Below are positions 3,096 to 47,814 of a stretch of 64,000 nt of DNA, one piece after another (position 1 is the first letter of the stretch; each line of letters starts with the position of its first letter). The translations under genes and the position numbers were made by a program. The notes under the pieces are model-generated. The model made no database searches. It was not told where the DNA came from and worked only from the letters and a program-made list of their open reading frames with translations. The DNA is from Psammoneis japonica. Its lineage: Eukaryota. The stretch is taken from NCBI GenBank assembly GCA_008632985.1, contig QPGO01000055.1, positions 287,100 to 351,099 on the forward strand, written 5' to 3'.

Positions 3096-3185
3096 GTTTC
3101 TACATAGTGAAAGACTGAAAGGAAAATTATTGCGCAGACAACAATACAGCTTTGTTCTTGTCATAAGTGTAGTAGGTAGTCCCCT

Positions 3186-5982: not shown

Positions 5983-6138
5983 ACCGATGTCTTCTTATAG
6001 GCTTTGCTTGCGCTATCTATCTATGAGATTGGTACCCGAATGATTTGTTGTTTCTGTCTTTACATAAATCGCTGGAACATATGGTACAGTAAAGCTGAAC
6101 AAATAAAATATGAAAATGATACTGTACCTCATCTCTCG

Positions 6139-7600: not shown

Positions 7601-7816
7601 ATGACAAAGGGCAATGTGTGATGACTCAAAAAAGCACCCCGTCAAGCAAGTAAAAATTCGCCTTTGTGTGCGGTGTAACCTTGTCACATCCTCCGCCTCA
7701 CGCACGGCACAAAATTTGCACCACGCGTGAGGCGCAATCACTCAGAGGATGACCTTCCACGTCAGCGTTGTCATTGTGTGCGGCATCCCACACTGTTTGA
7801 CGACCTGCCCATCTCA

Positions 7817-8722
7817 GCATTTTTTCACCTGGTGTGGGCAGCAGGTTTTGATTAACTCGACTCGAGCGAAGCGAGAGTCATGTCACAAAAGCAACCCAGA
7901 TGTTAAAGTGGGGAGAACTGACAACAACTGCACAAGCAACCATCATCAAAGGCAGCTGCACTCAAGGACAAGGGACAAGGGACAACATGTGAAGCAAAAT
8001 GCAACATGCAGACAAGGAGCTTGTGCAGAAACAAAATGTCTAGCCACACCAGCACCAGTGGAGGAGGCCACAAGAGGAGGCAGAGCAACACGAGGAGGAA
8101 GCAAGAAGAGAGAAGCTGCCAAAGGGGACAAGAGCCTGCACAGAGGACAGCGGCATGTGCTGTGCCTTGAAGAACCGGGTGGAAGGGGTGAAGAGAATGC
8201 CAAAAGGGGAAATTGTGAGACTCTGTTTTGGGAGCTGAAAGCAAGCAGTTGTGAGATGCTTTGCAGCACAACCCAGCAAAAGCTCACATTGCTGCCCAGG
8301 CAGGCCAGCCAAGAATCTCTGTGTGTTGTCCATGACCAAGCAGCAGCACCCTGAAAAGTGTTTTCAACACCACTTTGGGGTGTGACCCAGTTGTCATTGA
8401 GAGCTGTGCCTTGCAAAAAACTGCTCCAGTGCTTGTCAGTGAATCTCCGAGCATGTGCGAAAGCACCGGAGCTTGCCAAAGATGTCTCTCTGCTGCTGTG
8501 CGCTGCTTCTGTCAAATGAGAGCACAAGCATGTGCTCCATGACCTCTTTGCAGAGCTGGGCAATTGTCTTTGCAGCTTTGGTGTTTGGTGCAGAGCTCCC
8601 AGCACAGTGCTTTGCTGTGGCACCAACAAGGTCATGGGCAAGAGCATCAGCAGTGTCAGCAGCAAAAAGCAGCTCTGCTGTGTGTTGGAGCAGCAAGCAG
8701 CCAGAGCAACAACAACAAAAAG
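7817..8722 (+). repeat. Copy 2 of ~0.9 kb direct repeat, abutting the 3' part of the DUF6824-like gene
   Basis: Direct alignment to 6139-7046, including hairpin at 7859-7879. Confidence 0.95.
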
Positions 8723-8729
8723 CAAGAAA

Positions 8730-11042: not shown

Positions 11043-11453
11043 CTTGCTGTCTCTGTTTGTGTTTTTCTTTATCACAACCGCTTTTCGTGTTTTGTTCCGT
11101 GTTCGTGAATTCGTGACGGGCCTGTCGAGTGGCCGCATGCCAGAGAAATACAGTAAGCCCCACCTTTGTCTTGTCTCCATACATAATAATCAATAATCCC
11201 ATTCAAAGATGACTTTGCGATGACTTCAATGCGAAGGGCTTATATATTTGAAATCCCAATCAAATAGGACAGTACGTCTAAATGTCTCTATAAAAAGGCC
11301 AGCTTCATAAAATGAGAAGGGCTTGTTTTTTTCTTGTGTTAGTGACTGTGACTTGTGAAGTGCTCTTTTAAAAAGCCTTGTCATTTCGACAATGCTGTGT
11401 CCCACAACTTAGCACCGGTACTGTGCTACTTTATCAGTCATTCTCTAGAGAGG

Positions 11454-11635
11454 TGAATGAGATAGGCACATGTGCTTTATGACCAAGTGTGCCCTCTCTG
11501 ATGTGTGCATGTCAACTGGCGCATTGGATGTTCAGGAAGCCGTCAGAAATCAGCTCCGATCAGTGATTGTGCTGATCGGGTCTCTTCTCGGTTCTCCCAC
11601 AACTTTTGTCAAGTCATCTCAAGCTAGATCTTGCA
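11454..11635 (+). repeat. Gypsy 5' LTR
   Basis: Ungapped match to 16941-17122 with 25 differences, all transitions. Confidence 0.95.
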
Positions 11636-11948
11636 CTGCAATTGCAGTCGTTGTTGCGGCTTGTTTGCTGCATTGTCAATTTTGTGACAACGCGAAGAGT
11701 GTTGTCGAGAAGAGAGAAAATTTGTTTGCGAGCTTGTGCAGAAAAATTCATTCGAAGTCGATCAGAACCGCAGCACAATTGTGCTCGTGAAATTGGCGAT
11801 TCGGATCAGCATTTGTTTGAACTCAAATCTCGCATTGCTGCTCTTGAATTCGTCATTGTTTGGTTGTTGATTGTTCTCGTTGTGTGGATCAATTGGGAAC
11901 GTTTTGTTTCATTCATCTTGTGGATTGTTGATTGTTTGATCGCTGAAA

Positions 11949-14900
11949 TTGTTCATCGCCATGCATCAAGAAGCCTTGGAGAAAGCGTGCATTGAACATA
12001 AAACCAAACTCGTGGATTCTGAGCTGCAGGAAGTGAAGCTCACTCAAACCTTCGATGATGGTGCCAAACTTTCAAAAATGTGTCCTGTTTTCACAGGAGA
12101 GCATGGGATTGAATCATCATTGCACGTGGAGGATGGGTTCCGGAAGGTGGCAAGACAGCCAGATTGTGATGCCGGAACAGAGTCATTTGATGCTTTCGAG
12201 GATTGTCTCCAAGGAACTGCGGAGGCAAAATGGCAGAATGTCACCACGGGCATTCCACAGAGTCAACGGACGGCAGCTCGATTTGATCAGGCTATCTCAT
12301 CCTGCTGTCTGCACTGCGTGAAACCGACAGCTCACGACACAATGAAGATGTGCTTGCCCACTTGCAATGAGCCTTGCTCAGCGGAATCTGAAACTCACAT
12401 TGATCGCATGGAGATGTTGTTTCGTCACACTGACCGTTTGCCTGGTGCCGTTCCTGCACTCACAGAGCAGGAGCAGAAAAACATCATCTTTTGTGCCTTC
12501 CCTTTGACCTGGCAGCAGCCCCACATTTGTGCAGGCAAGAACCTTGTCACGGATTCTATGGTTGATGTCCAAGCCCACATGAGTGATGAGAAAGTGTTTG
12601 CCGACGGTCAAGACAACAAGAAACGCAAGTCCAGCAATGGCAACGGAGGAAACTCCAGTGACAAAAAGGGCAACCATGACAAGAAGGATGGCAAGGGCCA
12701 ACCGAAGGCAGGTGATCCATGTCCGGTCCCGTGGCACCATGGAAGGCATGCATTGGGCCAATGTTGTGACAATCCGAACAACCCCAACTTTCGTGGGCCT
12801 CAAAACCGTGGCGGTCGAGGAGGAGGCTGTGGCGGTGGAGGTCGAGGCGGAGGCCGTTTCCAAGGAGGCTGTGGTCAAGGCTGTGGAGGCAGTGGATGCT
12901 TTGGTGGTCATGGTGACCAGAACCAAGGAGGTTGTGGCACCTGTTGCAACAACAACAACAACAATGGAAATCAAAACAACAATGGCAACCAAGGTGGTGG
13001 TCAACATCATTGCAATGAAAACAACAACCGTGGAGGCCAAGGACAGGCCGACGGACATGCTGCTCAAGCAGACAATGTGAACAATGACAACCAGGCTCGA
13101 GAAGCTCCTTGTGGTGATGTGCGCCATTTTGACATGATCGGACGAGGCCCTCCAAGATGCGGAGGTGTGGTGAGGTTTCAGCCGGACGGGCAGTTTCCTC
13201 GGCAGTTCTGAGAAGAAGGAGCTGAATGCTCTGGAGCTGAATGCTCCCAATTGCCTGTGAGAGAAGCATTTGTTGAAGAAAATGATTGTGCTCCACCTGA
13301 ATGAAATGACGAATGTTTTGCTTTTGATTGTTTTGAAAATCCTGACGAATTGTCACCCATTGAATTTGAAAATGCTGCAGAAAATTGCATGAATGAAGAG
13401 GGGGATGTGTTTGATCAAGATGCATTTGAATGTGACACTCCTCTCCCCAAAATGAGTTCGCAAGTCTCACGTGCCGCATTGGTCCCATCTGCACCACTTG
13501 TTGCAAAATCGATCCAATGGCATGAGTCGAATCGTGTGATGCGTGTTTTGTTTGATTCGGGTGGTTCTCACACTGTGATTTCATCCCAAGTTTCACCTCG
13601 AGGAGCTGCACCATCTGTTGATGAACATGGAGTCAGAGCTTTCCAAACCGTGGCTGGTCCTTTCCAATCGGGTCGTTGGGTGGCCTTGAGCGATGTCGTG
13701 TTGCCGGAATTTGACAAAACTGGGAGGATTGACGGCTGTGTGGCTCACGCACTCGATGCTCTGTGTGCGCACGACATCATTTTGGGTCGAGACTTCTTGG
13801 ACAAGATTGGTCTCAACCTGAACTACGATGCAAGGACACTGCGATGGCCAGACCGTGTGATCCCAATGAAGGAACCTCGTCATTGGTCCAAGTCTTACAA
13901 CTGGCATGTGGCTCTAGATCGAATGGATGAATTTGATGAAGATCATGAAGACGAGTCGGACCATGGATGCGATGATGGACATGACAACTGCATGCTCGAC
14001 GCCAAGTGTGAAGCAACGGATCCAGCGGAAGTGGTTCGGAATTTAGATCATCTCACGGAAGAGCAAAAGAAGAAGCCACTGGCGGCATTGGAGAAATGTT
14101 CAACCTTGTTTGATGGAACTTTGGGGCACTGTCCTCATGAAAAGGCACACCTCGAAGTGGATGAAAATGCTGTTCCACATCACTCAAAACCGTTTCCTGT
14201 TGCTCGAGTCAATGAAGAAGCGTTCAAAAAGGAATTGAAGCATTTGGTGAATCTCAGCGCACTTCGACCATGTGGACCTACGGAATGGGCAGCCGGCACC
14301 TTCATTGCTCCGAAAAAGGACGGCCGAGTGTGATGGGCATCCGATTTTCGGGAGCTCAACAAAGTCATCAAGCGGAAGGTGCATCCTTTGCCAGTTGTTC
14401 AAGATGTGCTACAACGGAGAGCGGGCCACAAGTTCTTCACGAAATTGGATCTCACTGTGTTCTACTGCAATTTGGAATTGGACGATGAAAGCAAGGAGCT
14501 CGCTACGATTGCAACTCCGTGCGGAAAGTTCCAGTGTTGTCACATGGCTGTGGGATTGAAGCCAGCTCCAGACATTGCTCAGTCCATTGTTGAAAAGATC
14601 CTGCATGGTTTGGATGTTGAAACTTACATTGATGACATTGGCGCATTTGACGCTGACTTTGATTGCCATCTCTCTCGCCTTGACAAGGTGCCACATCGTC
14701 TCGAGGAGAATGGTTTGAAAGTCAACCCATTGAAGTGCGAGTGGTGTGTCCAAGAAACTGATTTCCTGGGGCGTTGGCTTGCTCCAACTGGAATCAAACC
14801 GTGGAAAAAGAGGGTCAAGGCGATCCTGCGAATGCAACCTCCACGGGATGCCACTCAGCTCCGGTCGTTTCTCAGTGCAGCAACCCATTGTCGCAACATG

Positions 14901-16832
14901 TGGCCTCGCCGTTCTCACCCACTTGCACCTCTGACTGAATTGACAGGCAAGAGTCAGTTCCAATGGACAGAATCATGTCAGAAAGCATTCAAGGAGATGA
15001 AGGCAGTGATTGCGGCGGAAGCTTTGATGGCCTGTCCTAACCACAACCTGCCATTCCATGTCCACACCGATGCATCAGACTGCCAGATGGGCACCGCCAT
15101 CATTCAAGATGGCAAACCTGTGGCGCATTGGTCTAAGAAGCTCTCGGCAGCTCAACGCAACCACTCAACAATGGAAAAAGAACTCCTAGCCGTCGTCATG
15201 TGCTTCAAGGAATTTCGCTCCATGTTGCTCAGTGCTGATGTTGCTGTTCACACTGATCACAAAAATCTCACCTTTTGCACTTTGAATGCGCAGCGCGTCC
15301 TTCGTTGGCGACTGTTCCTTGAAGATTTCGCGCCTGCCTTTAAGCATGTCGAAGGCAAGGACAACATGCTCGCCGATTGTTTTTCTTGACTCCCACGCAT
15401 GGATCCGCCTTCAGAGGGGAAGAGCCTTGGGCCAAGTGGCAGCAAACGCAAAGGAAAAATTGTTCATTTTGAAAAGTTGGATTCCAAGGAACTGAGCAAA
15501 GCTGAGGAAGAGGAAGATTTGGAGTTGGGCGCTTGCAGGTTCAAGTGTTGCCGTGCTCCGGTTGATCCTTCTGATGAGTCTCACGCCGCCTTTTCCTCTC
15601 TGCTTGATGAGCCTGAATTGTTTGAATGCTTTTTGAATTACCCAACGCTGGATGAAATGCCGAATCCTGCTGAGATGCTGAGGACACAACAGTTCCAGTT
15701 CGAAGATCTCCAACTGAATCAGCAAAGACAACAAAATCCGCAGCAGTTCGTGGTCAAGATTGTGAATCATCGTCCCTTGATTTGTTGTCGTTTGCATCTG
15801 AATGATCCGCCTGGAGCCTGGAAAATTTGCACTCCTGCTGCATTGTTGCTGGGTGCCATTGCATGGCACCATCGTGCATTGGGCCATTGTGGAGTCGTGC
15901 GATTGCATGAAAGTGTTCGGACTCACATGCATCATCCTGCATTGCGTCGACGTTGTAATGAATTTGTTTGCGATGTGTGTCAATGATTTAAACAACTGGG
16001 TCCTGGACATGGAGAATTACCTCAATGTCAAGCACCTTTGGCTCCGTGGACAGAAGCAGTGGTTGATCTCATTGGACCGTGGAAAACACCGATTCAAGAC
16101 CAAGAGATTGAATTCAGCGCTCTCACTTGTGTTGACACTGTCACTGGATTGACTGAACTCGTGCGCATTGATGACAAAACTTCTCAGCATGTGACTGACA
16201 AGTTTCGCAATCTTTGGTTGGCTCGCCACCCCAGACCAAATGGATGCATCCATGACAATGGCAGAGAACTCATTGGTTGGGAATTCCAGATGCCACCAAA
16301 TCAAGCAGGTGTTGCTGATGCGCCGACGACATCTCGAAATCCTGCAGCCAACTCCATTTGTGAACGAATGCACCAGACGGCAGCTGACATCTCATGCACT
16401 GTGGTTGTCGCCAACCCACCTTTAAATGTTCAACAGGCCAAGCAGATTGTGGACGATGCCCTTGCTGCAGCCTCTCATGCTTTGCGATGCTCCCACTCAA
16501 GGTCTGTGGGTGTTTCAAGTGGAGCTCTGGTGTTTCAACGTGATGTGATTTTGGACTTGCCAGTTGTCTCCAACCTTGCTGCGACACAAGCCAACCGACA
16601 AGTGTTGATCGACGAGAATCTGCGACGACAGAATGCGCAGCACCATTCCTGCGATTGTCCAGTTGGTCAAGATGCATTGACCAAGTCGGTGGATCCTTCA
16701 AAGTTGGAAGAACGAGCCTGTGGTCCATTTCGAATTGCACAAGTCCACGCCAACGGGACTGTCTCGGCACTGCGAGCACCACACGTCATTGAGCAAATTG
16801 ACATTCGCCGCGTGGTGCCGCATCAGAGTTGA
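11949..16832 (+). pseudogene. Gypsy gag-pol in a single reading frame, interrupted only by TGA stops
   Basis: ORFs starting 11949, 13350, 14379, 15399 and 16038 share one frame; LFDSGGS (protease), YIDD (RT), TDAS/EKELL/TDHKNL (RNase H), HHCC and DLIGPW..HDNG..ICERMH (integrase). Confidence 0.93.
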
Positions 16833-16940
16833 GGGTTTCTTCCCAACGTCTGGGTTCCCTTCTCCGTGCGCATTGGGGTTTGAATTTTGGTCGAGTGGCT
16901 CCAATGGTGCACGTGTTCCTTGCACCATGGAGGGGAAGAG

Positions 16941-17122
16941 TGAATGAGACAGGCACACGCACTTTATGACCAAGTGTGCCCTCTCTGATGTGCGCACATT
17001 GGCCAACGTGTCAGATGTTCAGGAAGCCATTAGAAGTCAGTTCCAATCAGCGATTGCGCTGATCGGGTCTCTTCTCGGTTCTCCCACAACTTTTGTCAAG
17101 TCATCTCAAGCCAGATCTTGCA
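16941..17122 (+). repeat. Gypsy 3' LTR
   Basis: Follows PPT, ends CA, followed by TSD AGAGG. Confidence 0.95.
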
Positions 17123-17672
17123 AGAGGTGCTTTGGCACAAACAGCCCCTGTTTCATGGCATCCTGCCCGCGCTGTTCGTTCTTGCCAAGGAACAACAGAA
17201 CAAGTGGGCTTCCCAATGTCTTCGGCAATGTCTCTTGATGCTCCAAGTCAGCAGCAAGTGCGAGCAGAAAAGAAGATGATGCATGGATCCGTTTTAGAGG
17301 ACTGATGTCAGGCTCGAATCATTGCTGCCGAAAGACATTTCAGCATGCAGACAGGTGCAGTCACCAAAAAATCAGTGACCGCTCCACGCTGGCACTGCTC
17401 TGGGAAGTGGCAGTTGTTCTCTTCGCCTTGTGGGCCGAAAGTGACTCACAAAATCTCAGTTTGCTGCAGTGCTCTGAGTTCTGAGACACGCACAATGGGG
17501 TGCTTGTCTGCCGTTTTGCTGGGTGCGCTTCTCAGTGCTGCACTCAGTTCTGTCAATTCATCCTCTCTTCGAGGAATCATCCCATCCACCGCCAATGACA
17601 GGGTCCTTGCGGCGACAGATGAAGCTCACTTCCGATGCACTCTCGACTTGGTTGAAGAAGTGGAGATGGGAG

Positions 17673-18119
17673 CGCAGCATGCATGCAGACAAAAGGTCAT
17701 TTTTGTCATGCCCTTTGTGACATTTAAAGGCTGTGACACGTCGCCGTGACACATTGGCTCTCATTGGCAGCTGTGTGTTGCACTCCTCCCCATGTGTCAC
17801 GCGTCCATGCGGCTCTTTGCTAACGTGTGCTGACACTGCACGGTTTTGGCGGAACAGTGTGGGCATGCACGAAGGAACGTGCAGAACTGCACAGAGTTTC
17901 ACACGTTCGACAGTGATCAACGTTGCTGCAGACAACTCCCACTCAGGGTTTCGAACCCCTGGCCTCCTGCCCAATGGTTGCGATGAACCACTCCGCCATG
18001 AATTCACAGTGCAGCATGCATGCAGACAAAAGGTCATTTTTGTCACGCCCTTTGTGACATTTAAAGGCTGCAACACGTCGCCGTGACACATTGACTCTTG
18101 TTGGCAGCTGCATGTTGCA
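17673..18119 (-). mobile_element. TRIM (miniature non-coding LTR retroelement), copy 1
   Basis: 110-bp terminal repeats 17673-17782 and 18010-18119, PPT GGGGAGGAG on minus, 4-bp TSD GGAG; empty site visible in the paralogue at ~29766. Confidence 0.92.
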
Positions 18120-18977
18120 GGAGGCCCGCATGACAATGACAACGGGCCATCAGAGGAAACAGTGACATGCGTCAAAACTTCAACGGTTGCACACATGGAC
18201 AAAATTGCCGAGATGTTTGTCAACGAGATGGAAGGTTGCACACCAACTGGTGGGGAACATTGGGCAGATTCAGCGATGTATGCCCAAGGTGACGAGGAAA
18301 TCAAAACGACCATCAAGACAGACATTTTCGCCAAGCCAAAGGTCTTCATTGGAGGGGTTTTAAGTGAAAGAAGAAACATCGACCCAAATCAGCACCCCAC
18401 TTTAGGAGGCCATCGTGCTCGGAAGCTGTGGATGACTGCAGCCGGCAATGAAACCAAACAAGAGGCAGGTCACGCTGAAGCGCACACAAGTGCAAAAAAA
18501 GACTTCTGCGTCAGCGCAAGAGAATGAGGGTTCCTTCATTTCTTGGGACATTCATCGCCAAATGCAGAACAAGAAGAAAAACAGGAAGAAGAAGAAAAGA
18601 AACAAGAGGCAAATGTTTTCTCTGAACAACAAGGTCCACTGTGAGCCATGTCTTTCAGACAACTTGGATGGGGGCAGGCTTCGGAGGCTTCATGCTCTGG
18701 CTGCCATCAGCTCTTTTGAGCCCAACTTTGAAGTCTGGATGAATGATCGCATTCGCGAAGAGATCATCAAGGACTGTGCGGAGATTGCAGTCACAAGCAC
18801 AACGTTCTCGAGGATTGAGAAAGGAAACGCGACACACACAAGCGGTCCATCTCCACCTCTTCCAGGTTGGGAACAGCTGCTGGCAGAGGATGGAGACGAT
18901 GGGCGTCCACCAGATCCAGGGGCAGACGGTGGCACTCATCCAGACGGTGGGCCTCCATCAGATCCAGGCGCGGATGG

Positions 18978-19172
18978 TGACAGAATGCTGAAGGTCGACA
19001 GCGACAGAGGTGTGAAAGACTCCCTGAAGCACCAGGACTGTGATGATGCGAGCACCAGCAGATGAGAAAAGTGAGAAGCAGATCTCAGAGAGATCTGCTC
19101 GTCTGTCCAAATGGTCTGGCCATCATCCGCATCCAGTCTGTCCATCCTGCGACAGGTGCAGACAGGCTGACA
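18978..19172 (-). repeat. Copia 3' LTR
   Basis: Ungapped match to 27761-27955; 15 differences, 14 of them transitions. Confidence 0.95.
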
Positions 19173-20636
19173 CCCTCCCCTGATCTGTGGTGTCTCAACT
19201 TAGAGAACAGTGCAGACCAAACCAAAGAACAGGGACAATGTGAGGAAAAAACAGAGAGACCAGACACAGGACACGACAAGTGTCCATGCCCAATGCGCAA
19301 TCAATCAAGGGGGCAATTCGCAGCGGGGAGGCCACCGTGGAAAAAAATGTCAACAGCAGTGTCCCATCATGTGTTGAGCATGGCGAGCGTGCAGTGCCCA
19401 GCCAAGAGCCTTGGCAAGGTCATCGCTGGGGTTGACAATGCCAGGGATGTGTCTTGCGACAATCTTGCCCGCTTCCTTCCATTCTTGGATCGCAAACAAC
19501 TGGATCTCAATGTGACGGGAGTGCTCGGTCAGAATCGAGTGATTGATGATCTTGATCGCCGATTTGTTGTCAATGTGTGATGGGGTTGGCTTCGTCTGAG
19601 GGAAGCCCAGGTCTTGTAGAACGTGACGAAGGTGTGGGACATGCTTGGCAGCAGTTCCAGCAGCACAAAATTCAGCTTCCGTAGAGCTTGCAGCGGTCAC
19701 CGATTGGGTCTTGCACCAAAAAGACACAGCAGCACCAGCTGACATGCAAGCACAGCCAGTCGTAGAACGATGGTTGCAGAGGTCATTGCCACAAGCAGCA
19801 TCCAAGAAAGCAACGAGTTGATGATCACATGCAGGATGAGGGAACGATGGTGAGGTCGGGTCCGGAGTGAGACGTTCGAAGGGGCAGGCAGGTGGTTTTG
19901 AGTCTCGGGCAGGCTTCTTGCAGTTCAGCTCCCAATGCTTGGTGCGTCGAAGGCACTTGCACATTCCTTTGAGTGTGTCACAGTGGACCATGGCAGGACA
20001 GGTCGAGAACTTGGAGAGAGCAGTGACAGCACACCCAATGTCCAGTCGACAGACAACGTGCGCATGCAACAATTCGCCAAGAAGAGTTCGGCAGCCAAAA
20101 CCAGCAGCTTGTTGCAGCTCCGCATGCTCCGGGGTTCCTTCAGCTGGGCCAACAGCAGTGCACAGTTCGCGAACAGAGTCAACAGGGAGTGGCGCAGCCT
20201 TGCAGTCGTCGTCGAGTTCCTCGTCCGTCGGTGTCGACCAACCATGCGAGGCACAAACCCAATCTGCACAGCTGTGAACAGCAACACCAATGGAGTCATC
20301 ACATTGATGGACATCCACACCATTGAATTCTTCAATCATGCCAAGACACTTGAACGGCGGAGAGGTTTCCAATTCCAACTGGAGAGCTTTGCCAATCTTG
20401 TCGTAGATCTTGATCGCAATGGACTCTTCAGGACAAGCGAGAGAGAAATCATCAACCTGGCAGAGGAGCAAGATCTTGTGTCCCTCAAAAGTGGCAGAGC
20501 AGATGCATTTGTCATGAGCAGTGTTGCGAAAAAGCAGGTTCACATCAGACAAAAACCGTCGATGTGCGTCTCCCAGAGCACGCCGGCTTCTGGGTGTCCT
20601 TGGAGTGCATGTTGCATCGGAAGTGCCGTGCTCCTG

Positions 20637-21070
20637 TGCAACATGCAGCCACCAATGAGAGTCAATGTATCACGGCGACGTGTTGCAGCCTTTAAATGTC
20701 ACAAAGGGCGTGACAACAACCTTTTGTCTGCATGCATGCCACATTGTGAATTCACAGCGGAGTGGCACATCGCAACCACCAGGCAGGAGGCCAGGGGTTC
20801 GAAACCCGAGTGGGAGTTGTCTGCAGCAACGTTGATCACTGTCGAACGCGCAAAACTCTGTGCAGTTCTGTGTGTTCCTTCGTACGTGCCCACACTGTTC
20901 CGCCAAAACCGTGCAGTGTCAGCACACGTGAGCGCAGGTCGCGTGACACATGGGGAGGAGTGCAACACACAGCCACTGACAAGAGTTGATGTGTCACGGC
21001 GACGTGTTGCAGCCTTTAAATGTCACAAAGGGCGTGACAAAAACAACCTTTTGTCTGCATGCATGCCACA
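20637..21070 (+). mobile_element. TRIM copy 2, inserted in the Copia RT
   Basis: Terminal repeats 20637-20743 and 20961-21070, PPT GGGGAGGAG, 4-bp TSD CCTG; homologous to 17673-18119 in opposite orientation. Confidence 0.92.
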
Positions 21071-24000
21071 CCTGTCCAAGTCAATGCCAAATCGAGCCTT
21101 GTGCCAGGTCGCGCATGCCTCGTCTGTGGCAACACACACGGGATGTGATGGTCGTGGAGAGTGTGCACAGGCATCACAAACATCCCCGCCAAAGACAGGA
21201 CAGCTCAGGGTCGCAGCAAGGGCAAAAAACATGCGTTGGACAGGTTGCTCGACACAGGATGAGTGCGTCGAGCAGAGACAATGTAGTGTCGACGCAGCAC
21301 GGGGAGATCCATCGCAGCACTGTCGAGAGCGCCGTGTGCCATCATGCTTGAGGTCACATTGCCAATGCGGATGAAGCACGACAGCATCCTTGGGTCGTTC
21401 AATCGGTGCGCCAAACATCCCCAACTCATGGAACTGGTCAAGTTGTTTGAACTCACCTGCGTGCCATTTGGGCCACGTGTCCAACTTCTTGAGACGATGG
21501 CAGGTGAAAGTGCCCAAGGCTTGTTCCTCTGGAGTGACAGCGTGAGATGATGTGGCACAGATGTTGACTGTGCCATTGTCATGGTCGACAAAGAACGGCG
21601 GAGGGACATCGTCATCGTCCGTTTGGAGAAATCAATGTCGGGATGGCGGATGGCAGCAACAGCACGCACGTCGGCGTTGGTGATTTCCGGAACATGCTCA
21701 TCATCAGGATCAGGAGTCGGTGCACATGTGTTGTGTTCCATCAGAGCACGTTGTAGAGCTTGAGAGTCCAGGCGACGTTCCGGCACGAACTCAATTTCAA
21801 AATGAGTCTTGCCAGAATCATGGACTTGCTGAAAACGTTTGACAGCCTCCTCTGCCGTGAAGATGGGATGATCATTGATCGACAAGATGTGCACACCCTT
21901 GATCTTGTCACGGGTGGCCTTCAAAGAAGAGAAAAGACGTGCAGCAGGAGAACCACGCTCAATGTCAGAAACAAATGCTTGCCGACAGAGATCGTCCGTA
22001 GCCAAGGAAAGTCCAAATGTGGGATCAGCAAATGGTCCCTTCATCGCACGCTCAATGGTCTTGGCAAAAGGATTCCCATGAAAGTGAAATTCATCCATCA
22101 TGGTTTCTTCAGTCTCGGCAGGTAAAGCCTTGCCATCTTGAGTGCACCGCAAGTGAACCACATTCGGCGGAAGAGAGTCGTGGGGAAGATCATTCATGCC
22201 CTCATCACAGCGGATGTGCTTGGCAAGCTTGACACGCGATGTCTCAGCATCACACCCAAGAATGTTCTTGGCAGTGTCCAGAAGATGGCCTGAGAACATT
22301 CCCTTGCAAGAGACAGACCAAAATTTTGCTGGGCGGTGATTCGACGCATGCACCCACACTCGACAACCAAATGTGCGAAAGTTCTTGAAATCATCCTTCC
22401 GACCAGTGGCGAGAGCAATCGGAGCAGCAGGTTGTCCGCGGGATGGCATGGCATTGTTGATTTGAATGAAATGATGAAAAGCACAGGGCCAGAATTTTGT
22501 GGGCAAATCGGCACCGATTGGCATCGCCCGGATGGCGTCAGCAACAGACAAATGACTGCGCTCCACTGGGCCACTCTGATTTGAAGCATCTTTTCCCACA
22601 GGACGAATTGCATGATGAAAGTCATCCTCGAAGAGTTGCCGAACTTCTGGGTTTTGACACAATTCACCTCCTTGATCCATGAATGCATGTTCATCTGGAT
22701 GATTTGGCGAGTGCTCTTCCAGAAAGTGGCAAAGCCAATTCAAAGGGGTTGCCTTGGAGACACGAGTCGCACCATGGAGACGCTTCATTTTATGATCATA
22801 AACGGCAATCCAACAAGTCTCGCCATTCAATCCAACACAGTCCTTGGTGCGCTCCGAGCACTTGGAGCGTAGGCCAGAGAAGGAAAAATCAATCGTAAGG
22901 CCTTGGCAGGGTTGGGTGGCAGTGAGAGCAGTGTTCGGACCGGCAGGTTCCTTCGTCTGCTTTGCTCGCATGCATGTGGGACAAGTGTCGAGGGGAGAGG
23001 TTCCGTGAGCAAACTTGGGGACGCCGTCAACGTGTTTGTGGGCATTGCAAAGGCACTGATCACTCGGATGACCAAGTCGCTGATGCCACAAAAGACGTTC
23101 CATGTCGGCCTTGAGAGACTGGACAGGAATGTTCTTCTCAGCATGCTTCTCGAAAGGAATGTCTTGACAGACACGGGGGATCAACTTGCGTTCATCACGA
23201 AGAGCTTCATGTTGGTGGGCACGACAAGTCTCAATCACACACGCAGAGACCGCTTCACACTCATCGGCAAAAGAAGGATCACTGGTCTTGATGCGCTCGA
23301 CAGATGCATCCAGTTCGTCGTTAGATTCCGGGAGAATGAGAGGGTGAGCAAAACATTTTCCATTGATCAATTTCCCATGAACAACAACATCCTGACTCTT
23401 GCGTGATCGGTGTCATGCAACAAACTTGCAGGTGCCGAGATCATGGAACTTGAGAATGCAGTCGACATTGCAATCTGCGCGATGAGCACCATTTTGACGG
23501 AGCAGCAGTCGCTCATTGACCAACGTAGATTGGATCTGCGGGTGACAGCATGTACGAACCTCAACACATCCGGCAGAGTTCTCTGCAGGAATCCGCTGGC
23601 ATCCAAAACCAACTGGGACAGCTTGATGGCCAAGGGCGGGATTGACAGCAAGGGGACAGGGATGAGACGGAGTGAATTCTTGGTGTCAATGGAGGAGGTC
23701 ACGGTCGCCTGTGCACACAATGTCAGCACCTGTGTTGAGTTGAGCGCAACATTCATTCAGAGCAAAATTGACCCCATGGACAGAGCAAGCAGAGCGCAGT
23801 GGTTCTGGTTCAGGAGAGTGAGTCACTTGGCATGGATCAATCGGAGCAACTCAAACAGAATTGACTGCAGCAAAACCATCTTCAACGGCCATGTCATCGT
23901 AGGTGAGATCAATGTGTTCCTCAAAATCTGGTGTTTCTGAGGCTTCCCTCCCCTGCTCCAAAGGATCCGGAGCAGGAGCAGCATCGACGGTGTCTTCTTG

Positions 24001-38081: not shown

Positions 38082-39041
38082 AAATACGGGTGTTGCAGGC
38101 CAAAATAATGTGCTTACGGTAGACAATTAAGACGAAAGAGATTGTCTGCTGTTTGAAATGAACTATCGTCGCAAGTCGCAACGCGTCAGACGCGAGATGT
38201 GCTTCGCATCTTCTTGCATCGCAACGCGATCATCAGTCGTGTCTTTTACTTATGACTGGTCATTCTGGGGCTATATGTTCTTAGTCGTGATGACCAACAC
38301 TACCGGTGCATGCAGTAAATAGAAGTATGAATACACTGCACTGTGCTTCTTCATCATCGAGCAGGATCTCTGCGTGTCGTGTGGTCGAAGAGGGCAGCTG
38401 AGTCAACGCGCCAGTGGCCAACAAATCATTCAAAGTGCAGTTGATCTTCCTCCTTCACCACCTCAACACCATCTAAATCTCCATCAATCTTGCCAGCCAC
38501 TGGGGTGTGCTGCACCAGTGTCCACAAGAACAAAAAAGCGTGGCACAGATGAGGCAGAGCTGCGCTCCCAACCCTGCTGGCCCAACAAGGAGCTGTGCAG
38601 CCACCAGGTGTGTTTGAGGCTCAAAGCCAGCAGCCCAAGATGCAGCTTGTTGAGCTTGTCATGGGGAATCCTATTTTTTGGTGTTGCTGATGGCGCACAG
38701 AATGCTCTCCAACAGCGAGCTGAGGCAAGCACATGGTGTGGCACGTGCCATCTGAAGAGCCGCGCCCTTTTTCATTGCAACACTCCACTGCTCTTTTCCC
38801 AAGCTGTCTGTTGTTTTGCTCCCTCAGCCAGCACACCTTTGAATCCAGAATGTGCTCAAATGGGCAGGAGGCATCTTGAGCTTGTTTTTTGTGACAACAA
38901 TGGCACACAAAAAGAAACACGATGAGGGGCGCTTTTGAGGCAAGGGCCCTCTCTGGTGCGCATCTCTGGGCCCTGCTGTGGTTTCATGCCAAGGAAGCCC
39001 AGGGGCATCATGAGAAATTTCTGGGCATCCTTGTCTCTTCC

Positions 39042-40970
39042 TGTTGGAACATCAGGGTGTGATGCAGTTTTTGGAAAACACAGACAGACAATGTTGCAAT
39101 GAAAGCAGTGCTGACGACTGTTGGTGGTGTCATGAATTTGCACTTGCAACTCACCATGAAGATGGGTCCATTGCTCACTTTTTGGCTTCTGTGCTGCAAT
39201 GACATGGCAGTGGCACAGGAGTTGTGACTGCAACCCATGTGGTGAGTTTGGGGGCCATCAAGCAAGACCAGCAAAGAGATCAGTCAGCAAGTCGCACAAC
39301 ACAGAGGGAAAAAATGGAGGGCACGACACCACACTTGAGGAGGTGGTGCCAGTCAAAGGCAAAGAGATGGCCTGTGGAGGACCTTGCTGTGAGGAAGCTG
39401 CAAGGGTGTGTTGAAAGAGGGTGTGGCGAAATTGCATCAGACCAGGTTGGGTTGACAAACCAACGGGCACACAGAGACCGTGTGAAAAACAAGCAAGCAT
39501 GTTGGAAGAGTGTTTGGGCCAGAGATGCAGGTGCACTGGCATCTGGCATCTCTTGTGCAGGAGAACACAAACCACAGGAGCCGGGGCATCCATTGGGTGC
39601 AACTGCATTGGAAAAGGACAAGGCAATCTGGGGAAAACAAGAGTGCAGTTGCCATGCAAAGCACGGCATGATCTGCAAGACGCAGAAGGCAAAGGCATTT
39701 GGCGCAGTTGTGGGACAGTGCACAAAAGCCATCTGCGTCAAGGTCAAAGGAGTGATGGAGTTCACGAGGGTTGCAAAGGAGTGGGGTGTGGCAGCCCTTT
39801 TGGAAATTCTTAAGTCAATCTTGTTCAGGGCAAACATGGGAGAATCTGCTTGCATGTTCAGGCTGTCAAGGCTTGGAGGCAGTTGGCACTCATTCATCAA
39901 GATGAAGGAGGGGTGATTCAAGATTGTTGCAATTGGTCCACAACTCACAAGTGTTTTGTTGAGGTGGTGGAAAGGCCCTGCAACAGAGTTGTCCCAGAAG
40001 AAATTGCCAAGAAAGAAGATGCAGAGGAGCAAGTTGTCAGAAGTGCTGCTCATGGAAGGTGCAAAGGAGTGTTGTGACCTGCGCAGGAATGGGTTGTCAA
40101 GCACTTGAAATGTGACAATTTGTTGATTGCAGATGTTGTGAGACCATTCTGCGTGCAACACATGCAGGCATGATGATGGTTGGACATGTGGAGCTTGAAT
40201 CCCTGAGCAACTGTGGTCACATTTGGCACTGTGCAGACCCTTCACACACAGAGTGATGCAGCCCACCACACCAGGTCTCTTGCCAGGAGTTGCATTTTCC
40301 ACTGCACGCTTCTGTCCAATCAGTGTCTCTGCAGACAGCCTGCAGATTCAGGGAAGCAGCACCATTGGTGGCTGTGGCAGGGATGCCCGCTGCAGTTGGC
40401 ACATCTTGAAGCACCCTGCACCAGCAGTTTGCACTGCAGCAGGGGTCAGCAATTGCCCCAATTTGGCAGAGGAGATGCTGCAAGTGTTGGACTCATGTGG
40501 GGCTAACAAGAAACATGAGGGAGCAAGCTTTGTGCAAGAAGCAACACAAGAAGAAGCAGATCAAACACTGCAAATGTGACAAGGTTGGACATGTGAGGCA
40601 GGGCTGTCCTTTGCTCAATGGCAACAACAACTGCTCATCTGCAGAGTTGAATGAAGTGGTCAGTGTGGCATCAGGTGGCATGGCATCCAACTTCCAACTG
40701 TCATCCTCCTTTGACTGGCACACATGAGGCCAATCAATTGATGGCTTGTGTGAAGGAGTGCATTGGAGCATCGGGGTGTGACACAGTTTTTGGAGGACAG
40801 ACAGACAGCATCACAGCAAAAGTGACAGCCACTGACAACTGTTGGTGAGACCATGTGGGTTTGCATTCACAACTCACCATGATGATGGGGGTCTCATGCT
40901 CACTTTTTGGCTTCTGCACCAGGACAACATGGCAACAGTGCTGGAGTTGTGTTTGCAATCCACATGATGC
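39042..40970 (+). mobile_element. Degenerate, internally deleted LTR retroelement (probably Copia) with gag remnant
   Basis: ~200-bp diverged direct repeats starting 39042 (TGTTGGAACATCAGGGTG) and 40761 (CATTGGAGCATCGGGGTG) after GAAGGAGTG; VGQCTKA...ALLEILK gag-like segment; degenerate zinc knuckle HCKCDKVGHVRQGCP (~40565-40610). Confidence 0.55.
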
Positions 40971-43900
40971 ACTCAGGGATTCACAAGACAGGCACAGATC
41001 AGTTGATGAGCTGCAAAGCTCCAATGCTGCCTGACTCCTTGATGCAAGCTTCTGCCATTGACAGGCACAGCACTCTTGAGTTTGTCGTGCAGCTTCTCAA
41101 GTTGCGTGCTCTTTTCAGAAATGGGCGGGGATGCTTTTTGAGGAGGGCACCCCAGCCAGTCTCGTTGGCTCACAGCGTGGCTCCTGAGCTCCTGCTTCAT
41201 CACATTGGAGCAGCCAAGTGTTGCTGCAGGCAATTTCATTTTGCGGTGCCTCACATGCAGTGCTTCTTCACCCCCTTCCCTGCTGGCTGCATCCAAACTC
41301 ACCTTGAAAAGGACACCTCTGGGTGGCCCAATGGCAAGCAACAGCCACACCACAGTTGCAAATCTTTTGTGGTTCTCAAAATTTTGTTGTTGCACACATG
41401 TGCTTCACCACCAACACCTGCAGCTGCACATCTGCGCTGCAGCTCTCTTTGGACCAGCATCACCAAGATTTGGAGTTGTTGGCACACACACTTGCAGTGT
41501 TGAGTGATTTCAAGGAGAGACATGTGGTGTGGAACAAATGTGGCAACAGCATCACTCCCTTTCAACTCTGTTTTGCCAAACAAGTTCCAGACATCACACT
41601 TGCCAACTTGCCACCTCTTGTCTGCATGGCTGCACCTTGCCATGACTTGTTGTTCCAGACTCAGGTGGTGTGCAGTGCCCATTTTTGCATGAAAATGCAA
41701 ATTTCATGATGTGTTCATTGCAGCAATTGCTTGCATGGCAACCATTGTTTTCATGACTTTCAGTGGCCATGATGGCCCCCTCTTTTCAACCTCATGGACA
41801 GCTCAAAGGGATCACAAGGACCGCAGCATTTGACACAACCAACACACAAACACCGTCTGTGACAAAAAACAATTGTTGCAATCTGCAGCACACTTTTGCT
41901 CTTTGCCATGGTGACCGCAGCTTTCAAAAGCAACAGCCACAGCCTCATTTTGCTCCCAGCTTTTCCTTTGTCACACAAGTCATTTCCCAGGTGTTGACTG
42001 GTGCAAGACTTTCAGTCATTGACACCAAAAGAAAGCAGTGGGAAAGGGGGTCTAAAGTTGATGCCATTGCAGTGCTGACATTTTTCTGGGTTCATCTGTC
42101 ACACAATTTGTTGCTCAATGAATGTCTTGGCAAAGCCACTGAGTTGCAAGCATCAAAGTGTGTGAAGAAAAAGCACCCAGCAGCATCCATTCCACATGAC
42201 TTCATTTGTTGTCTGAAAGAACATTGACCCTTTTTGTGTGTTGCATGTCAGCACATTTGCACAAACACAAAAACACTCAAGGAAAAATTGAGCTCTCATC
42301 TTGAGGCAGTCAATCTTCAGAGACAATGATGTGGGTGCACACATGAGACCTTTCTGCATGCACTCATGCCTGAACATTTGAGTGTCTGTGCTTTTTTGCT
42401 GCAGAGAATTGTGCCACAAGTTTGGGCCACGTGTTTCATGCAAAAATGAACATTTTTGCATGTGTGTGCACACCCAATTCTCAATTCTGGAACAAGCCCC
42501 ACTTGACTGTTCTCAGAGAGTGCAGAGCAACAACAAGATGTGGAGGAGGACCACACTGTGGGCATCTGTGGAGCAGCCTTGGCAGGAGGTTGCTGATTGA
42601 GTGTTTGCAGCGCTGCACAATGCCGCAACTTTGGAACAAACATGGCAAGCAGCAAGGTTGCACCAGCTCACACTGCAGCACTTGACAGGTGCTGGGTGTC
42701 TGCAATTGCAAAACCCCTGGCTGCCAAGCATGCTGCAGCAGGCTGAGGGGTCTTTGGCACTCACAAACTCTGGCAAAGGTGCACAAGAACTTGATGAAGA
42801 CCGGTGCAGTTGGCCCCACATGCTCTTGTTTTGGCCTTGTTGAAAACATGTTTCCACACGACATCACAAGTGCAGCCAACACCAACTGAATGATGGGAAG
42901 TCAGGGCGTTCTTTTGGATTGAGATGAAAAAGTTGAAAAAATGACCAACTCAGCCATTCATTGCATTGAGGGTTTGGAGCAACCAAGTGCTGGGAGAAAA
43001 CAGCCAAAAAGTGTCCTCAACATGGTCAGCAGGAGATTGAGCCAATTTGCTTGCATCATGGGGTTGCTGAGCCAGCATCAAAACAACCCAAAGCAATGCC
43101 ACCTGCTGCTTTGACCACCAATGTGCAAGTGCTTGGCCAGCCTGGTCTTTCTTTGGTGCTTCCTGAAACAACCCAGCTGATGGTGTTGTCCAGTCTCCCA
43201 ACATTTTGGTCCTGCAGAGGATGCCACAGATGTTTGAGACAACATGCACAGCACACTTGAGCCAAGTGTTCTTCTCACTCAGCTGATGTTCCTTCCCAGC
43301 CACTTCCCAAAAACAGAGTTGGAAAGAGGGCAGTGCCTCTCTCAGCGTGTTGCCAGAACAGGCTGGCAGCAAAGAAGATTTTGTGGTTGAGTCAGGAAAA
43401 ACTTTTTGAGTGAACCATTTGACCACACTGGCACACCTCAGAGCCGCTGCACGGCAAAGAGATGTTGCTCAAGACAGGGTTGCACAAACACTTGTTGTCC
43501 TGCTGAAGTGCCAGCTGTCACATGGCAGAGGACTCAGATCCTCCAGCAACAACTGCTCAATCAAACTGACTTTGGTTGAAAAACCTTTTGCAGACAAAGA
43601 GTCCTGCACACCAGAGTCCAAGGTGCACCCAAAGGGGCTGAAGCAGCAGCTGTTGGTGTGGTGTTTGCAACTTGCAGCAAGTCTTGCAACAACTTTGCAC
43701 AGTGCTTGGATGTGCTCATGATGGAGTTTGTGCACCTGGAGACATGGGGGTGCTGGCAAGAACAAAATGAGTGACCACGGAGAAGTGCAAACCACAGGAT
43801 GATTTTGGGAAAATCAGCAATGCAATTCTTCAGTGCAAGCAAGATGCAGCAGCATGGGAGCTGGCAAAAAAAATGGTGGGACACCGCTGACCCAGTGGTG

Positions 43901-46710
43901 GGTTGTAGAAGGGGTGGTGCTGTTCCACCACCGGCAGAGCAGATGCCGCGACACTGTCTTCTGGCTGGCTGGTGCCACACGCAGTGCTGTTGAGTTGACT
44001 TTGTCTTGACCCAGGTTTCTGATGAGGTTGTTGTCAGTCTGCATCTTTTTTGGTTGACCCCCCTTGGAGCCCTGCATCTCTCCCCTTCCTCATCATTGTT
44101 TTGCATTTTTTGGCTGAATCTCTGCATCTGGCCTTTGTTCATTTTCTCCCCTTGCCTGCAAACTGCTCAAAACAAAGATCATTTCATGATGGCAAGAGGC
44201 TGTTGGTTGCTCTCATTGCAGGTGAGCAATGCAAAGGTGTCAAACACTGCCAGCTCAATCGCCACAAAAGATTTTGGAGCTGAGCTTCACAAATTGTGCA
44301 CACTGGTTGACCAGGTCAACCATGGCGAGTGAGTTTGAGGGCATGGACAGCCCCAGCTCTGATCAAGGAGGCATCTCCAGATGAATCCAAGTGTGCCAAA
44401 AGATCCTCTCCTGTGGCCATTCAGCATTGTCATTGAGGGGGGAAGAAGCTCATGCTTCATGCTGTCACCCCAGCATGCTGCAGTGCTGCATGGGGAACAG
44501 GCTCCCAGAAGATGCAACAACCATCTTTGCATCTCTCAGTGGAGCGACACACTTTTTTTCATTTTGACCAATTGTTGACAGGGCGCTGAGATTTGCGCAC
44601 ACCAGAGGCAGGAGAAATCTCCTGAGCACCACAACAACTCCCTCATTTGCATGGAACAATTGCAGGAAGCCATGGAAAGCAAGCAGGGGAATGGCTTGGT
44701 GACTTGGGCAGCAAGGGAGACCACATGGCAAGCTGGCTGTGCCAAGATCTGCAAACTGGAGTTGATGGTGGTTTGGCAGATGAAAACCCACGAGTGAAAT
44801 TTTTTTCATTGTCCAATGTGAGGAGATTCTCCACAGCAGTGCTCCATTGCAGAAGATGTGCTTTTGATGGCTGTTGTCAAATTGAACATTGTGTGTGGGT
44901 GCAAACTTCTGGAACTCTGCTGCGCTGACTGAGTCAACAAGATCTTGATTTGCAAACTTGGACATTTGTTCATTTTCACAAATCACCCCTGTTTCTTGCC
45001 ACACACAGGTGTGGTTGATGACAAATCTGACTGATTGTGTCACAAATGAAAAACCAGAATGTGGTTTTAAGTGCTGTTGCACCTTTGCCCAGCAACACCG
45101 GCGCTGGCTGACCCACACTTCCAGCACACCCTGCAAGGGGTGTGGTGGCAGAAGATTGTGCAATCAGTTGATGTCAATGCGCCACTTTGAAGCAACGTGC
45201 ACCAGAGATAAAAGGTCAAGGAAAATTTGCACTAGAACGAGATTGTTGCTTTCTTTTGGAGAGCATTTGATGCACCCAAAGCACCACAGCAAAGGACAAT
45301 CAAGTCAAGCAGAGAATTCAAAGTCAGTGCAAACTCTGAGAGAAAATCTTTTCCTCTGAGGGAGAATCTTGTCTTCAACAAAGACCAGCTGAATTTCACA
45401 ATTGCATGGACCAGAACAACAGTGTGCAGTTCACTGCTCGGAACAGTGATCTTGGCAGGCCAGCAAGCAGAAAAGGGGATGTTTGGGGCTTGCAAGGATG
45501 AAACAGGAAGTCTTGGTGATGTGACAAGAAAGTTGTTGGAAGAAACATTGTTCTCACGTAGAATTGATGCTGAACCTTGCATGGAAAAGCCAATCCGCAC
45601 AGCAAATGGATGGTCGTCAGGTGATGCCGATGGTTTGTCCATGCAAACACTTGCAGGCACCACAACAGGGACAGCACTTTCACCACATGAGGTGAAGAAC
45701 TTGAGCAGCCAGCAGGAGTAAAAGAAATTGTTGGGGGCTTTCCTGTGTGGAAAGAAGTTGATCGCATCGGAGACGCAATGACTTTCGGTGTGTGTTTCTG
45801 AAGCGCATGGAACTTGCACTGGATTCTGTGCAGAAATTGCACCAAATCCACAAAAAATTGCCAAATGAGACAAGCAGGCCCACCCTTTTGTCATGGAGAT
45901 AAAAGGGTGTGCCAATGGCAGAAGGGGCCAAAAGGTTGATGGGGGACCCAGCAAAACGCCGTCTGAAAAGGGAGACATCAGCATGAGAGCACGCGCAGAA
46001 ACACACGTGGGGGCTGCCAGTGGGTGATTGCATGAAAAAGTGATTGTGTCACAAATGAATTTGTGTGTTCATGCTCACACGTGTTGGGGTCTGGTTGTCT
46101 GCCGGTGGAAGGATTCACAGATTTGGCCCCCTGACAATGTCCCCAGAACATTTGGGCACATTGATGCACCACTCTGTTTGCACCCCTGGATCTGGTGAGT
46201 GGGGCTCTGTGCAACATTTTTCTTGTCCTGTTGCAGTGCTCTGCACACAAGCTCTGCAACTTGTGCATCAGGCAGCCCCAGCAAGTGGGTCTGTCTTTGA
46301 TGTCAAAGTCAGCAAATGACTTTTGTGGCGCCATTTTGCCTTTTTGTTCCATGCAGACACATCAGAGAGGAGTGCAGCTGGGCATGAAAAAGATCAAAAT
46401 CTGTTGATCAGGACACCCGGCAATCTTGTGCGAAAAGCTGGTGCAAAATTGACCAACACAGAATCATTGAAAAATGAAAAATCACAGCCCCCCAATGATG
46501 CTGCAAGTTCCTGCCCAGAGCTGGAGCTGATCTGGCGTGCTGCATGTCAGGCAGGAAGGAGGGGTGTTGACCACTGCACCACCATCACAGGCAGGCAGCC
46601 ACCTTTGCTTTGGGAAAAGGTGTTGGACAGCTCCAACCATCAGAAAGTGCCTGTTCTGCAGAAGAGTGATGGGCACTGGCCAGTGCGCGGGAGGCGTCGC
46701 TTTCTGTTTT

Positions 46711-47123
46711 GACACGCTCCAGATGTGCTGGGCAGGAATTCATGTGACACCAGGCCTGCAGAAAATTCTGCATGCAAGCTCCACAGCAAAATTGCTGGGC
46801 AATGAATGCGTCAATGATCACCAACAGAAAAAAGAGGCAATTTTGTGAATGCACAAACTTGCCCATGATTGAAGCGCATCATTTCTTGCTTGGCCTGGTG
46901 CACTCTTCAGACATTGTTGAAGAGCACACCTGGCGCAATGTTGTTCCCACAAATTTGTCAAACAAAACATCTGAAACTTCACAAAACAGCAAGTCTGGAA
47001 CAATTCTGTGGGAGAGCACATGCAGAAATGTGCGTGTGAAGCACGCGGCAGATGACAAAAAATGTTTGTGTCACGCAGGTTGGCACTGCGAGCTCCCACC
47101 TCCCGGGGCTGGAACAACGCATC
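46711..47123 (-). mobile_element. Third, most degenerate copy of the GAC...GTC MITE, inverted
   Basis: Collinear with the reverse complement of 24804-25197 throughout; TSD not cleanly preserved. Confidence 0.8.
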
Positions 47124-47331
47124 TTGTTTTGTGGCTCATCAGAAAAAATGAGCTCAACACCTGCCTGGATCCACACCCCATCCTGCCCACTTTGTTCACA
47201 GTGTTTTCAGCCAGGGCTCTCTGTGGAAAAGAGCACACGCCGTTCTTGTTGGCTCGCAAAAAAAGAAGCTGCCCCCCCCTCAGTCAAGTGTGGCACCATC
47301 CATTGAACCCTGAACACAATTGCTCTGCAGC

Positions 47332-47357
47332 TGTTTGTTGTTGTTGTTGTTGTTGTT
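47332..47357. repeat. (GTT)n microsatellite near the right edge of the mutated block
   Basis: TGTTTGTTGTTGTTGTTGTTGTTGTT. Confidence 0.9.
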
Positions 47358-47814
47358 TTTGTTCGGCTCAGGCAACGGCTCTACAGAGTCGTGTCACTTT
47401 TAGCATTGACACGTGGCATTTTTTGCAAAGAAGCCAGTCTTTCCCTCTGTCTGTCATTTTTCACCCAATTCTCACATTGGTGACCGTCCCAAAATGCCAT
47501 GAAAATTTTCTGTCTGTCTCACGTCATCGTGTCATAATGGGGTTTCGCAACGTCATCTATGACGTCACACTGACCGCGAAGCCGAATGATGCCATCAAAA
47601 CATCACACCGACAAGAAATAACCAACGCACATCATCATCGCTCATCGCAACATCACAGGACCAGAAGATTCGATCTCCTCCCACCGCAGAATACGATTCT
47701 TAGTGTCGAGTTGTTGTATTTTTCGTCCAAACTGCCTTGCGATAGTCACAGCATCCTCCAATCTTTCATTGTACGAGGCAAAAGTGAACGTATTTGAAAA
47801 GCCGCGAAGAAAAT

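Follow-up and report, generated by a model that had tools for sequence, protein, structure and literature searches.

The gypsy element and its surroundings

The DNA analysed here, referred to below as the window, is a stretch of 64,000 nucleotides from the diatom Psammoneis japonica (assembly GCA_008632985.1, contig QPGO01000055.1, positions 287,100 to 351,099 of the forward strand); coordinates are given within this window. Positions 11454 to 17122 are occupied by a retrotransposon flanked by long terminal repeats (LTRs), in which the dinucleotide TpA has been almost entirely lost. The element lies on the plus strand between two identical 5-bp target-site duplications of sequence AGAGG (left copy 11449..11453, right copy 17123..17127). 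Its LTRs are each 182 bp long and of the form TG...CA; the 5' LTR (11454..11635) holds 3 TpA and 5 CpG, and the 3' LTR (16941..17122) holds 2 TpA and 7 CpG. A polypurine tract, read directly from the sequence, adjoins the 3' LTR (16929..16940), and the interior encodes gag-pol in a single frame (11940..16832), comprising gag, a protease DSG motif, reverse transcriptase (RT), RNase H and integrase.

Pfam analysis detected RVT_1, RT_RNaseH and RT_RNaseH_2 within 14334-15389, downstream of the DSG protease motif, and gave no match of its own for the integrase part. A search with 14334-16829, in which stops were read as X, yielded 851 relatives from marine and freshwater metagenomes and MMETSP transcriptomes, the best with 64% identity over 100% of the length. 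The relatives aligning over the full length of this segment carry RVT_1, RNase H, an integrase zinc domain and rve. By its LTRs, target duplication and pol domain order, the element is best classed as a Ty3/gypsy LTR retrotransposon.

Five TGA codons (13209, 13302, 14331, 15387 and 15984) interrupt the gag-pol frame as internal stops, and this gypsy copy is therefore dead. In place of the stop at 15387, Arg is found in each of the 19 aligned relatives; the stop at 14331 is a CGA codon in nearly every other family copy, which has C at that position. A first-pass annotation made from the sequence had described gag-pol as remaining in one frame; 11940-16832 is indeed free of frameshifts, but the five TGA stops had been overlooked.

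Transitions at TpA and CpG in the LTRs and pol

Alignment of the two LTRs revealed differences at 25 of 182 positions (14%), all of them transitions, with no transversions and no indels. They comprise six TG-vs-CA double swaps (12 sites), three CA-vs-TA, four CG-vs-TG and two CG-vs-CA differences, and four other transitions. Pyrimidine–purine (YpR) steps account for 21 of the 25; transitions drawn at random for this LTR hit such steps 12.4 times on average (P = 1.5e-4), and six TG|CA doubles were reached in none of 20,000 random transition sets. All but one of the differences fall within LTR positions 10-117, and they are densest in a hypervariable segment at 11510..11526 (LTR positions 57-73; 3' LTR counterpart 16997-17013), in which the two LTRs disagree at 13 of 17 positions.

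The direction of these changes was read in two ways. For the single-site differences, with CG and TA assumed to be ancestral, derived states are present in both LTRs, five in the 5' LTR and four in the 3' LTR. A third LTR copy was recovered from the contigs of X1, the sole public sequencing run that contains the locus, as 28 unaligned letters that span the hypervariable segment and were right-aligned to the two LTRs. This copy reads TA at LTR positions 60-61 and 69-70, where the LTRs read CA|TG, and at 64-65 and 72-73, where they read TG|CA. With TA in the third copy at four of the six doubles, the ancestral state at these was therefore TpA, altered independently on opposite strands after the LTRs were duplicated. 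The A following TpA was also altered twice in the LTRs (TAA to TGG). By origin, at least 13 of the 25 differences are A:T>G:C changes at or next to TpA and six are CpG singles; the remainder comprise four sites in two unpolarised doubles and two others.

The absence of transversions from 182 bp places an upper bound of about 1.6% on the background divergence of the LTRs, and therefore nearly all of their 14% divergence is hypermutation. The LTR site counts fit an element with normal TpA at integration, and the evidence from the LTRs supports mutation of both strands in DNA that had already integrated.

For the interior of the element, pol was aligned to its 40 best relatives, giving 372 columns with at least 80% agreement. 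It departs from the consensus at 60 of these: 19 changes are TpA>CpA, 17 TpA>TpG, nine CpG>CpA and three CpG>TpG, with four other transitions, two transversions and six multi-step changes. TpA-type changes thus make up 36 of the 54 single-step polarised changes and CpG-type changes 12, so that A:T>G:C at TpA and C:G>T:A at CpG stand at about 3:1. Polarised CpA>TpA changes number zero, and non-CpG GC>AT transitions 1 of 54. On the coding strand, the TpA-type changes are balanced between T>C (19) and A>G (17).

The encoded protein is altered to match. Conserved tyrosine (Tyr) is kept at only 2 of 19 pol columns, with eleven changed to His and six to Cys, and Tyr makes up 0.4% of the gypsy protein vs 2.6-4.3% of its relatives. 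Conserved Arg is kept at 23 of 29 columns and replaced by Cys, His, Gln or a stop at the other six. The host gene Sec1, compared with 40 relatives as a control, shows 42 differences at 423 columns, of which one is TpA-type and one CpG-type; the others are 15 transversions, 14 multi-step changes and 11 other transitions, and only one of 16 conserved Tyr columns has lost its Tyr. By these counts, the main process is A:T>G:C change at TpA, balanced between the strands, and CpG>TpG/CpA change is a lesser, second process.

The first-pass annotation had reported the 25 transitions without indels, six TG-vs-CA double swaps, three TA-vs-CA differences and a perfect target-site duplication, and our alignment and recount returned the same. 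From these it had argued that the changes were made after integration and on both strands, rather than by editing of RNA before reverse transcription; the derived states of both polarities in both LTRs, the TA of the third copy at four of six doubles and the 19 to 17 balance in pol all bear this out. Its further claims, that change was much faster than background and that LTR dating would mislead, agree with a 14% divergence free of transversions and indels and a background of at most about 1.6%. It had left the process unnamed: a fast two-strand mutation was correctly recognised, but its main component, A:T>G:C at TpA, was missed.

The same loss is evident in dinucleotide composition. Observed/expected ratios in the gypsy element are 0.07 for TpA, 0.70 for CpG, 1.61 for TG and 1.49 for CA, and those of host-gene stretches are 0.5-0.9 for TpA and 0.8-1.3 for CpG. 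With expectations taken from the medians of the relatives, the element holds 26 TpA vs about 262 expected, and 241 CpG vs about 323. Among 78 loci of metagenomic relatives, kept from the best 80 of 362 confirmed matches and thus biased towards intact copies, TpA ratios range from 0.45 to 1.08 (median 0.73), and TpA loss was found in none of the 78. Two of these gypsy relatives, L072 and L075, have CpG ratios of 0.11 and 0.31 and ordinary TpA ratios (0.76 and 0.55), so that in other hosts CpG has decayed while TpA has been spared.

The depletion begins abruptly at the 5' LTR edge, where TpA counts per 500 bp are 18 and 25 outside and 3 and 2 inside; CpG counts are unchanged across this edge. 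The gypsy element is itself inserted within a copy of another repeat (17411-18982 together with 11053-11394, compared with 29065-30630), an uninterrupted second copy of which lies near 29065-30630, with its left part only patchily alike. Comparison of the left flank with a partial paralogue at 28960-29440 was considered as a natural control and found unusable, the likeness being patchy and broken by indels and transversions.

Over the transposon blocks of the window as a whole (6134-8725, 11454-25600, 27000-30800 and 38700-47380), 120 TpA were counted in 29.2 kb, compared with 1235 in 29.6 kb of host DNA. The contexts of the surviving TpA also differ between transposon blocks and host DNA: ATAT occurs 0 vs 82 times, ATAC 1 vs 95 times and TTAA 21 vs 56 times. 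With both strands read, TAT would tentatively be the most favoured target and TAA the least favoured.

Other copies of the gypsy family were examined in the contigs of X1; two further runs, X2 and X3, contained next to none of the stretch. Summed contig depth in X1 is about 2000-3800 over the gypsy element vs 58 on the flank, and the family is therefore multi-copy. Compared with the copy in the window, those in X1 show transitions at 602 places and transversions at 67, as well as indels. Junction contigs span both ends of the insertion without difference, and no empty-site joint was found among the 15 joints listed of 26 in this one sample. Majority-rule polarisation from the other copies was rejected as unsafe, since parallel changes saturate the same sites.

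Related signatures elsewhere in the window

A copia-like element on the minus strand (19350..23412; Pfam gag_pre-integrs and SH3_retrovirus) carries the same signature. Its open reading frame (ORF) at 21205-23412 (minus strand) contains 0.3% Tyr vs 3.3% in 15 relatives and keeps conserved Tyr at none of five columns. Nine of its 24 differences from these relatives are TpA-type (five TpA>CpA and four TpA>TpG) and four are CpG-type. Four public copia relatives, P0253, P0278, P0287 and P0266, are also low in Tyr (0.6-1.1%). At its conserved Tyr columns P0253 has Phe four times and Cys twice, and Arg is unchanged at all 10 of its conserved columns. P0253 could be an active element in which TpA is avoided, or else a copy of other origin that has undergone part of the hypermutation.

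Pairs of repeats within the window that share at least 85% identity show 53 TG|CA doubles vs a single CG|TA double. The same pairs hold 26 CG|TG, 22 CG|CA, 20 CA|TA and 2 TG|TA sites, as well as 48 transversions, 23 of which belong to one older pair.

An 8.7-kb block at 38700..47380 is nearly exhausted of both TpA and CpG, with 9 TpA, CpG observed/expected ratios of 0.08-0.34, and TG and CA ratios of about 1.7-2.2. No Pfam family was found in its six read-through frames, and the block has the look of an ancient relic that has run out of both YpR palindromes. In 17 ORFs from the other TpA-free blocks, no Pfam family was found at the default threshold, with one weak match to GAT (E 0.008). One TpA-free block begins sharply at 6134, the start of a pair of direct repeats (6134-7049 and 7812-8725; 919 bp, 97.8% identity) that differ by 11 transitions, 1 transversion and 4 gap openings; these represent either TpA-poor sequence that was duplicated or a short LTR-bounded element. 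Between two TpA-poor blocks, an inverted self-match lies at 25927-26470, with a TA-rich run at about 26130-26256.

Long ORFs of at least 300 codons occur on both strands of TpA-free DNA, for example at 12378-13352 and 12556-13632 (both minus strand). DNA free of TpA has no TAA or TAG, and these are therefore chance ORFs, which inflate ORF lists in the transposon blocks. The host genes of the window are also long uninterrupted ORFs, identified by Pfam as Sec1, a subtilase, a class-C G-protein-coupled receptor and a RimP-like protein. Sec1 is 53-66% identical to full-length diatom proteins, including those from Nitzschia, Fragilaria, Fragilariopsis, Ditylum, Skeletonema and Thalassiosira. Eight host proteins were also compared for exact identity with the protein collection searched, and no match was found.

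A TpA-directed process and its parallels

The gypsy element is read here as a dead Ty3/gypsy copy, belonging to a multi-copy family and changed after integration by two-strand transition processes at TpA and CpG that stop at the element edge, a reading to which we give a probability of roughly 0.85. The signature has a clear polarity, is symmetric between the strands, is confined to mobile DNA and was laid down after integration. In the sequence of events proposed, a gypsy copy would have integrated into the diatom nuclear genome with identical LTRs. A dominant process would then have converted TpA to TpG or CpA (A:T>G:C), removing roughly 90% of the expected TpA, and a lesser process would have converted CpG to TpG or CpA (C:G>T:A), with a loss of about one quarter of the CpG expected. 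In either case TG or CA would replace a palindromic YpR dinucleotide, and independent changes on opposite strands at one site in the two LTRs would appear as a TG-vs-CA double swap.

The closest parallel is the chlorarachniophyte Bigelowiella natans, a rhizarian. According to a 2026 preprint on mutation-accumulation lines of this alga (10.64898/2026.01.13.699255), 231 of 302 mutations fell in two integrated viral regions, where they were almost all A>G or T>C, all of those at TpA. The preprint also gives a TpA>TpG/CpA rate of about 6e-7 per site per generation in the integrated viruses, a de novo rate at TpA about 1000-fold over background and confinement of the activity to some lines; it describes TpA-depleted coding sequences as enriched for RT and DDE domains, and proposes an ADAT2-like adenine deaminase (10.64898/2026.01.13.699255).

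The two cases share A>G and T>C changes at TpA, on both strands and in foreign or mobile DNA only, as well as a long-term depletion of TpA with enrichment of CpA and TpG. At the sequence level, every feature that marks TpA hypermutation in B. natans is present in the gypsy element. The two cases differ in that the host here is a diatom, a stramenopile, and the targets are LTR retrotransposons. The gypsy element is also near-saturated, with a TpA ratio of 0.07, unlike the nucleocytoplasmic large DNA virus region of B. natans, for which the preprint gives 0.45, and the loss of TpA is accompanied here by a CpG>TpG/CpA component.

Other known systems resemble the present one in part. Repeat-induced point mutation (RIP) of ascomycetes is likewise a two-strand transition process confined to repeats and transposons, which kills an element without frameshifts and inflates LTR divergence. 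Unlike RIP, which changes C to T mainly at CpA and so creates TpA, the process here destroys TpA, and the RIP signature is lacking. The decay of CpG in methylated transposons is matched by the CG>TG/CA changes on both strands, including CGA>TGA stops; such decay by itself, however, covers only some quarter of the polarised changes and leaves the TpA loss entirely unexplained. Hyper-editing by ADAR or APOBEC enzymes also produces deaminase-driven, transition-only mutation of retroelements with a neighbour preference, a 5' U in the case of ADAR. It differs in acting before integration on RNA or minus-strand cDNA with one polarity, whereas both polarities are seen here and the LTRs diverged in place.

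A full-text literature search returned no report of TpA-directed hypermutation or transposon TpA depletion in diatoms, and mutation spectra are not discussed in the available part of Maumus 2009 (PMC2806351). The gypsy element adds a diatom host and LTR retrotransposon targets to a kind of hypermutation that has so far been described in a single chlorarachniophyte preprint.

We infer the chemistry of both processes. The TpA process would be the same kind of defence as in B. natans, and an adenine deaminase related to ADAT2/TadA and acting on DNA is a plausible candidate for its enzyme. ADAT2/3 and TadA act on A34 of tRNA, which always follows the invariant U33, and this UpA context would fit the TpA rule. 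The CpG process is most readily understood as deamination of 5-methylcytosine in methylated transposons.

The alternative that survives best keeps the process and changes its chemistry. The thymine of TpA would be modified by TET/JBP enzymes to 5-hydroxymethyluracil or a base-J-like derivative, and would mispair with G to give T>C on either strand. In dinoflagellate DNA, 5-hydroxymethyluracil occurs preferentially at TpA and TpC. The symmetric signature suits this chemistry, since sequence gives no means of separating T>C on one strand from A>G on the opposite one; the two LTR changes at the second A of TAA fit a 5' T>A neighbour preference and TpT equally. Adenine deamination is the chemistry preferred by the B. 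natans authors, and we regard thymine modification as unlikely.

A second alternative, which we consider quite improbable, places the loss of TpA before integration, by ADAR/APOBEC-like editing of RNA or cDNA or in an already mutated source copy, and leaves only the CpG changes to the integrated element. It draws support from the private differences that separate this copy from the others, which are mostly CpG-type, and from the 919-bp pair at 6134 and 7812, which is 97.8% identical yet already TpA-poor, so that TpA-poor sequence can evidently be duplicated. Editing of one strand of RNA or cDNA would not, however, yield the balance of 19 T>C and 17 A>G in pol, and the three CA|TA sites of the LTRs, together with the four doubles that are TA in the third copy, place derived states in both LTRs. 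The fit of the LTR site counts to normal TpA at integration also opposes it.

Decay of methylated CpG alone would derive every TG|CA double from CG and make low TpA native to the family. The six CG|TG or CG|CA singles in the LTRs, the replacement of conserved Arg by Cys, His, Gln or a stop at 6 of 29 columns, and the presence of CG in other copies at 16 of the 40 best-supported private differences speak for it. It is nevertheless highly improbable, given that 36 of 54 single-step polarised changes lie at TpA, that 17 of 19 conserved Tyr columns have lost their Tyr, that TpA ratios are at least 0.45 in all 78 relatives (from the best of 362), and that the third LTR copy has TA at four doubles; moreover, with CpG still at 0.70 and three CpG common to both LTRs, six double-hit CpG sites would be unexpected.

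Descent of the LTRs from two recombined elements, which the first-pass annotation had itself raised, or the overwriting of one LTR by gene conversion, can be set aside as scarcely credible: the family is multi-copy (depth about 2000-3800 vs 58 on the flank) and 24 of the 25 differences are confined to LTR positions 10-117, but the 5-bp target duplications are identical, the differences fall at YpR steps, and the LTRs are free of the transversions and indels by which the X1 copies differ (67 transversion places vs 602 transition places, plus indels).

Several further points weigh against post-integration TpA and CpG transitions that stop at the element edge. The evidence for timing comes only from the LTRs, that for the internal region being less certain, and for two of the six double swaps no polarity could be assigned. 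On its right the element is flanked by another repeat, also poor in TpA, which leaves the left side as the only one with a sharp edge. The metagenomic relatives come from the top-scoring matches among 362, with a bias towards intact copies, and decayed copies may exist elsewhere; X1 may be the source sample of the window and is not independent of it. At the 40 best-supported sites, 16 private CpG>TpG/CpA changes stand against 3 private TpA changes, although these 40 sites (of 669) favour positions where the other copies agree and cannot gauge the post-insertion share of the internal TpA loss.

A broader reading, which we offer tentatively and hold at slightly under even odds, is that diatoms run a TpA-directed DNA-editing defence, akin to that of B. 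natans, that leads to near-complete loss of TpA and Tyr codons, alongside cytosine methylation that erodes CpG, as a counterpart of fungal RIP across the stramenopiles, alveolates and rhizarians (SAR). As part of the same tentative reading, the defence would pick out single transposon insertions with a precision of tens of bases. Elements that are still live might evade it through TpA avoidance; Phe stands in place of Tyr in some of the public copia relatives.

In genomes of this kind LTR-divergence dating is invalid, the pair described here having diverged by 14% with zero transversions. Annotation is affected as well: TpA-free DNA keeps TGA as its sole stop and so yields long false ORFs on both strands, and the resulting Tyr-poor, Cys/His-rich pseudo-proteins escape domain searches. 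If the reading is true, a second and ecologically dominant lineage carries a saturated signature on ordinary LTR retrotransposons, which would make the TpA process a general genome defence and not an oddity, and diatoms would be a tractable group in which to find its enzyme. Editing of adenine (or thymine) in integrated mobile DNA would then be an old, SAR-wide counterpart of fungal RIP.

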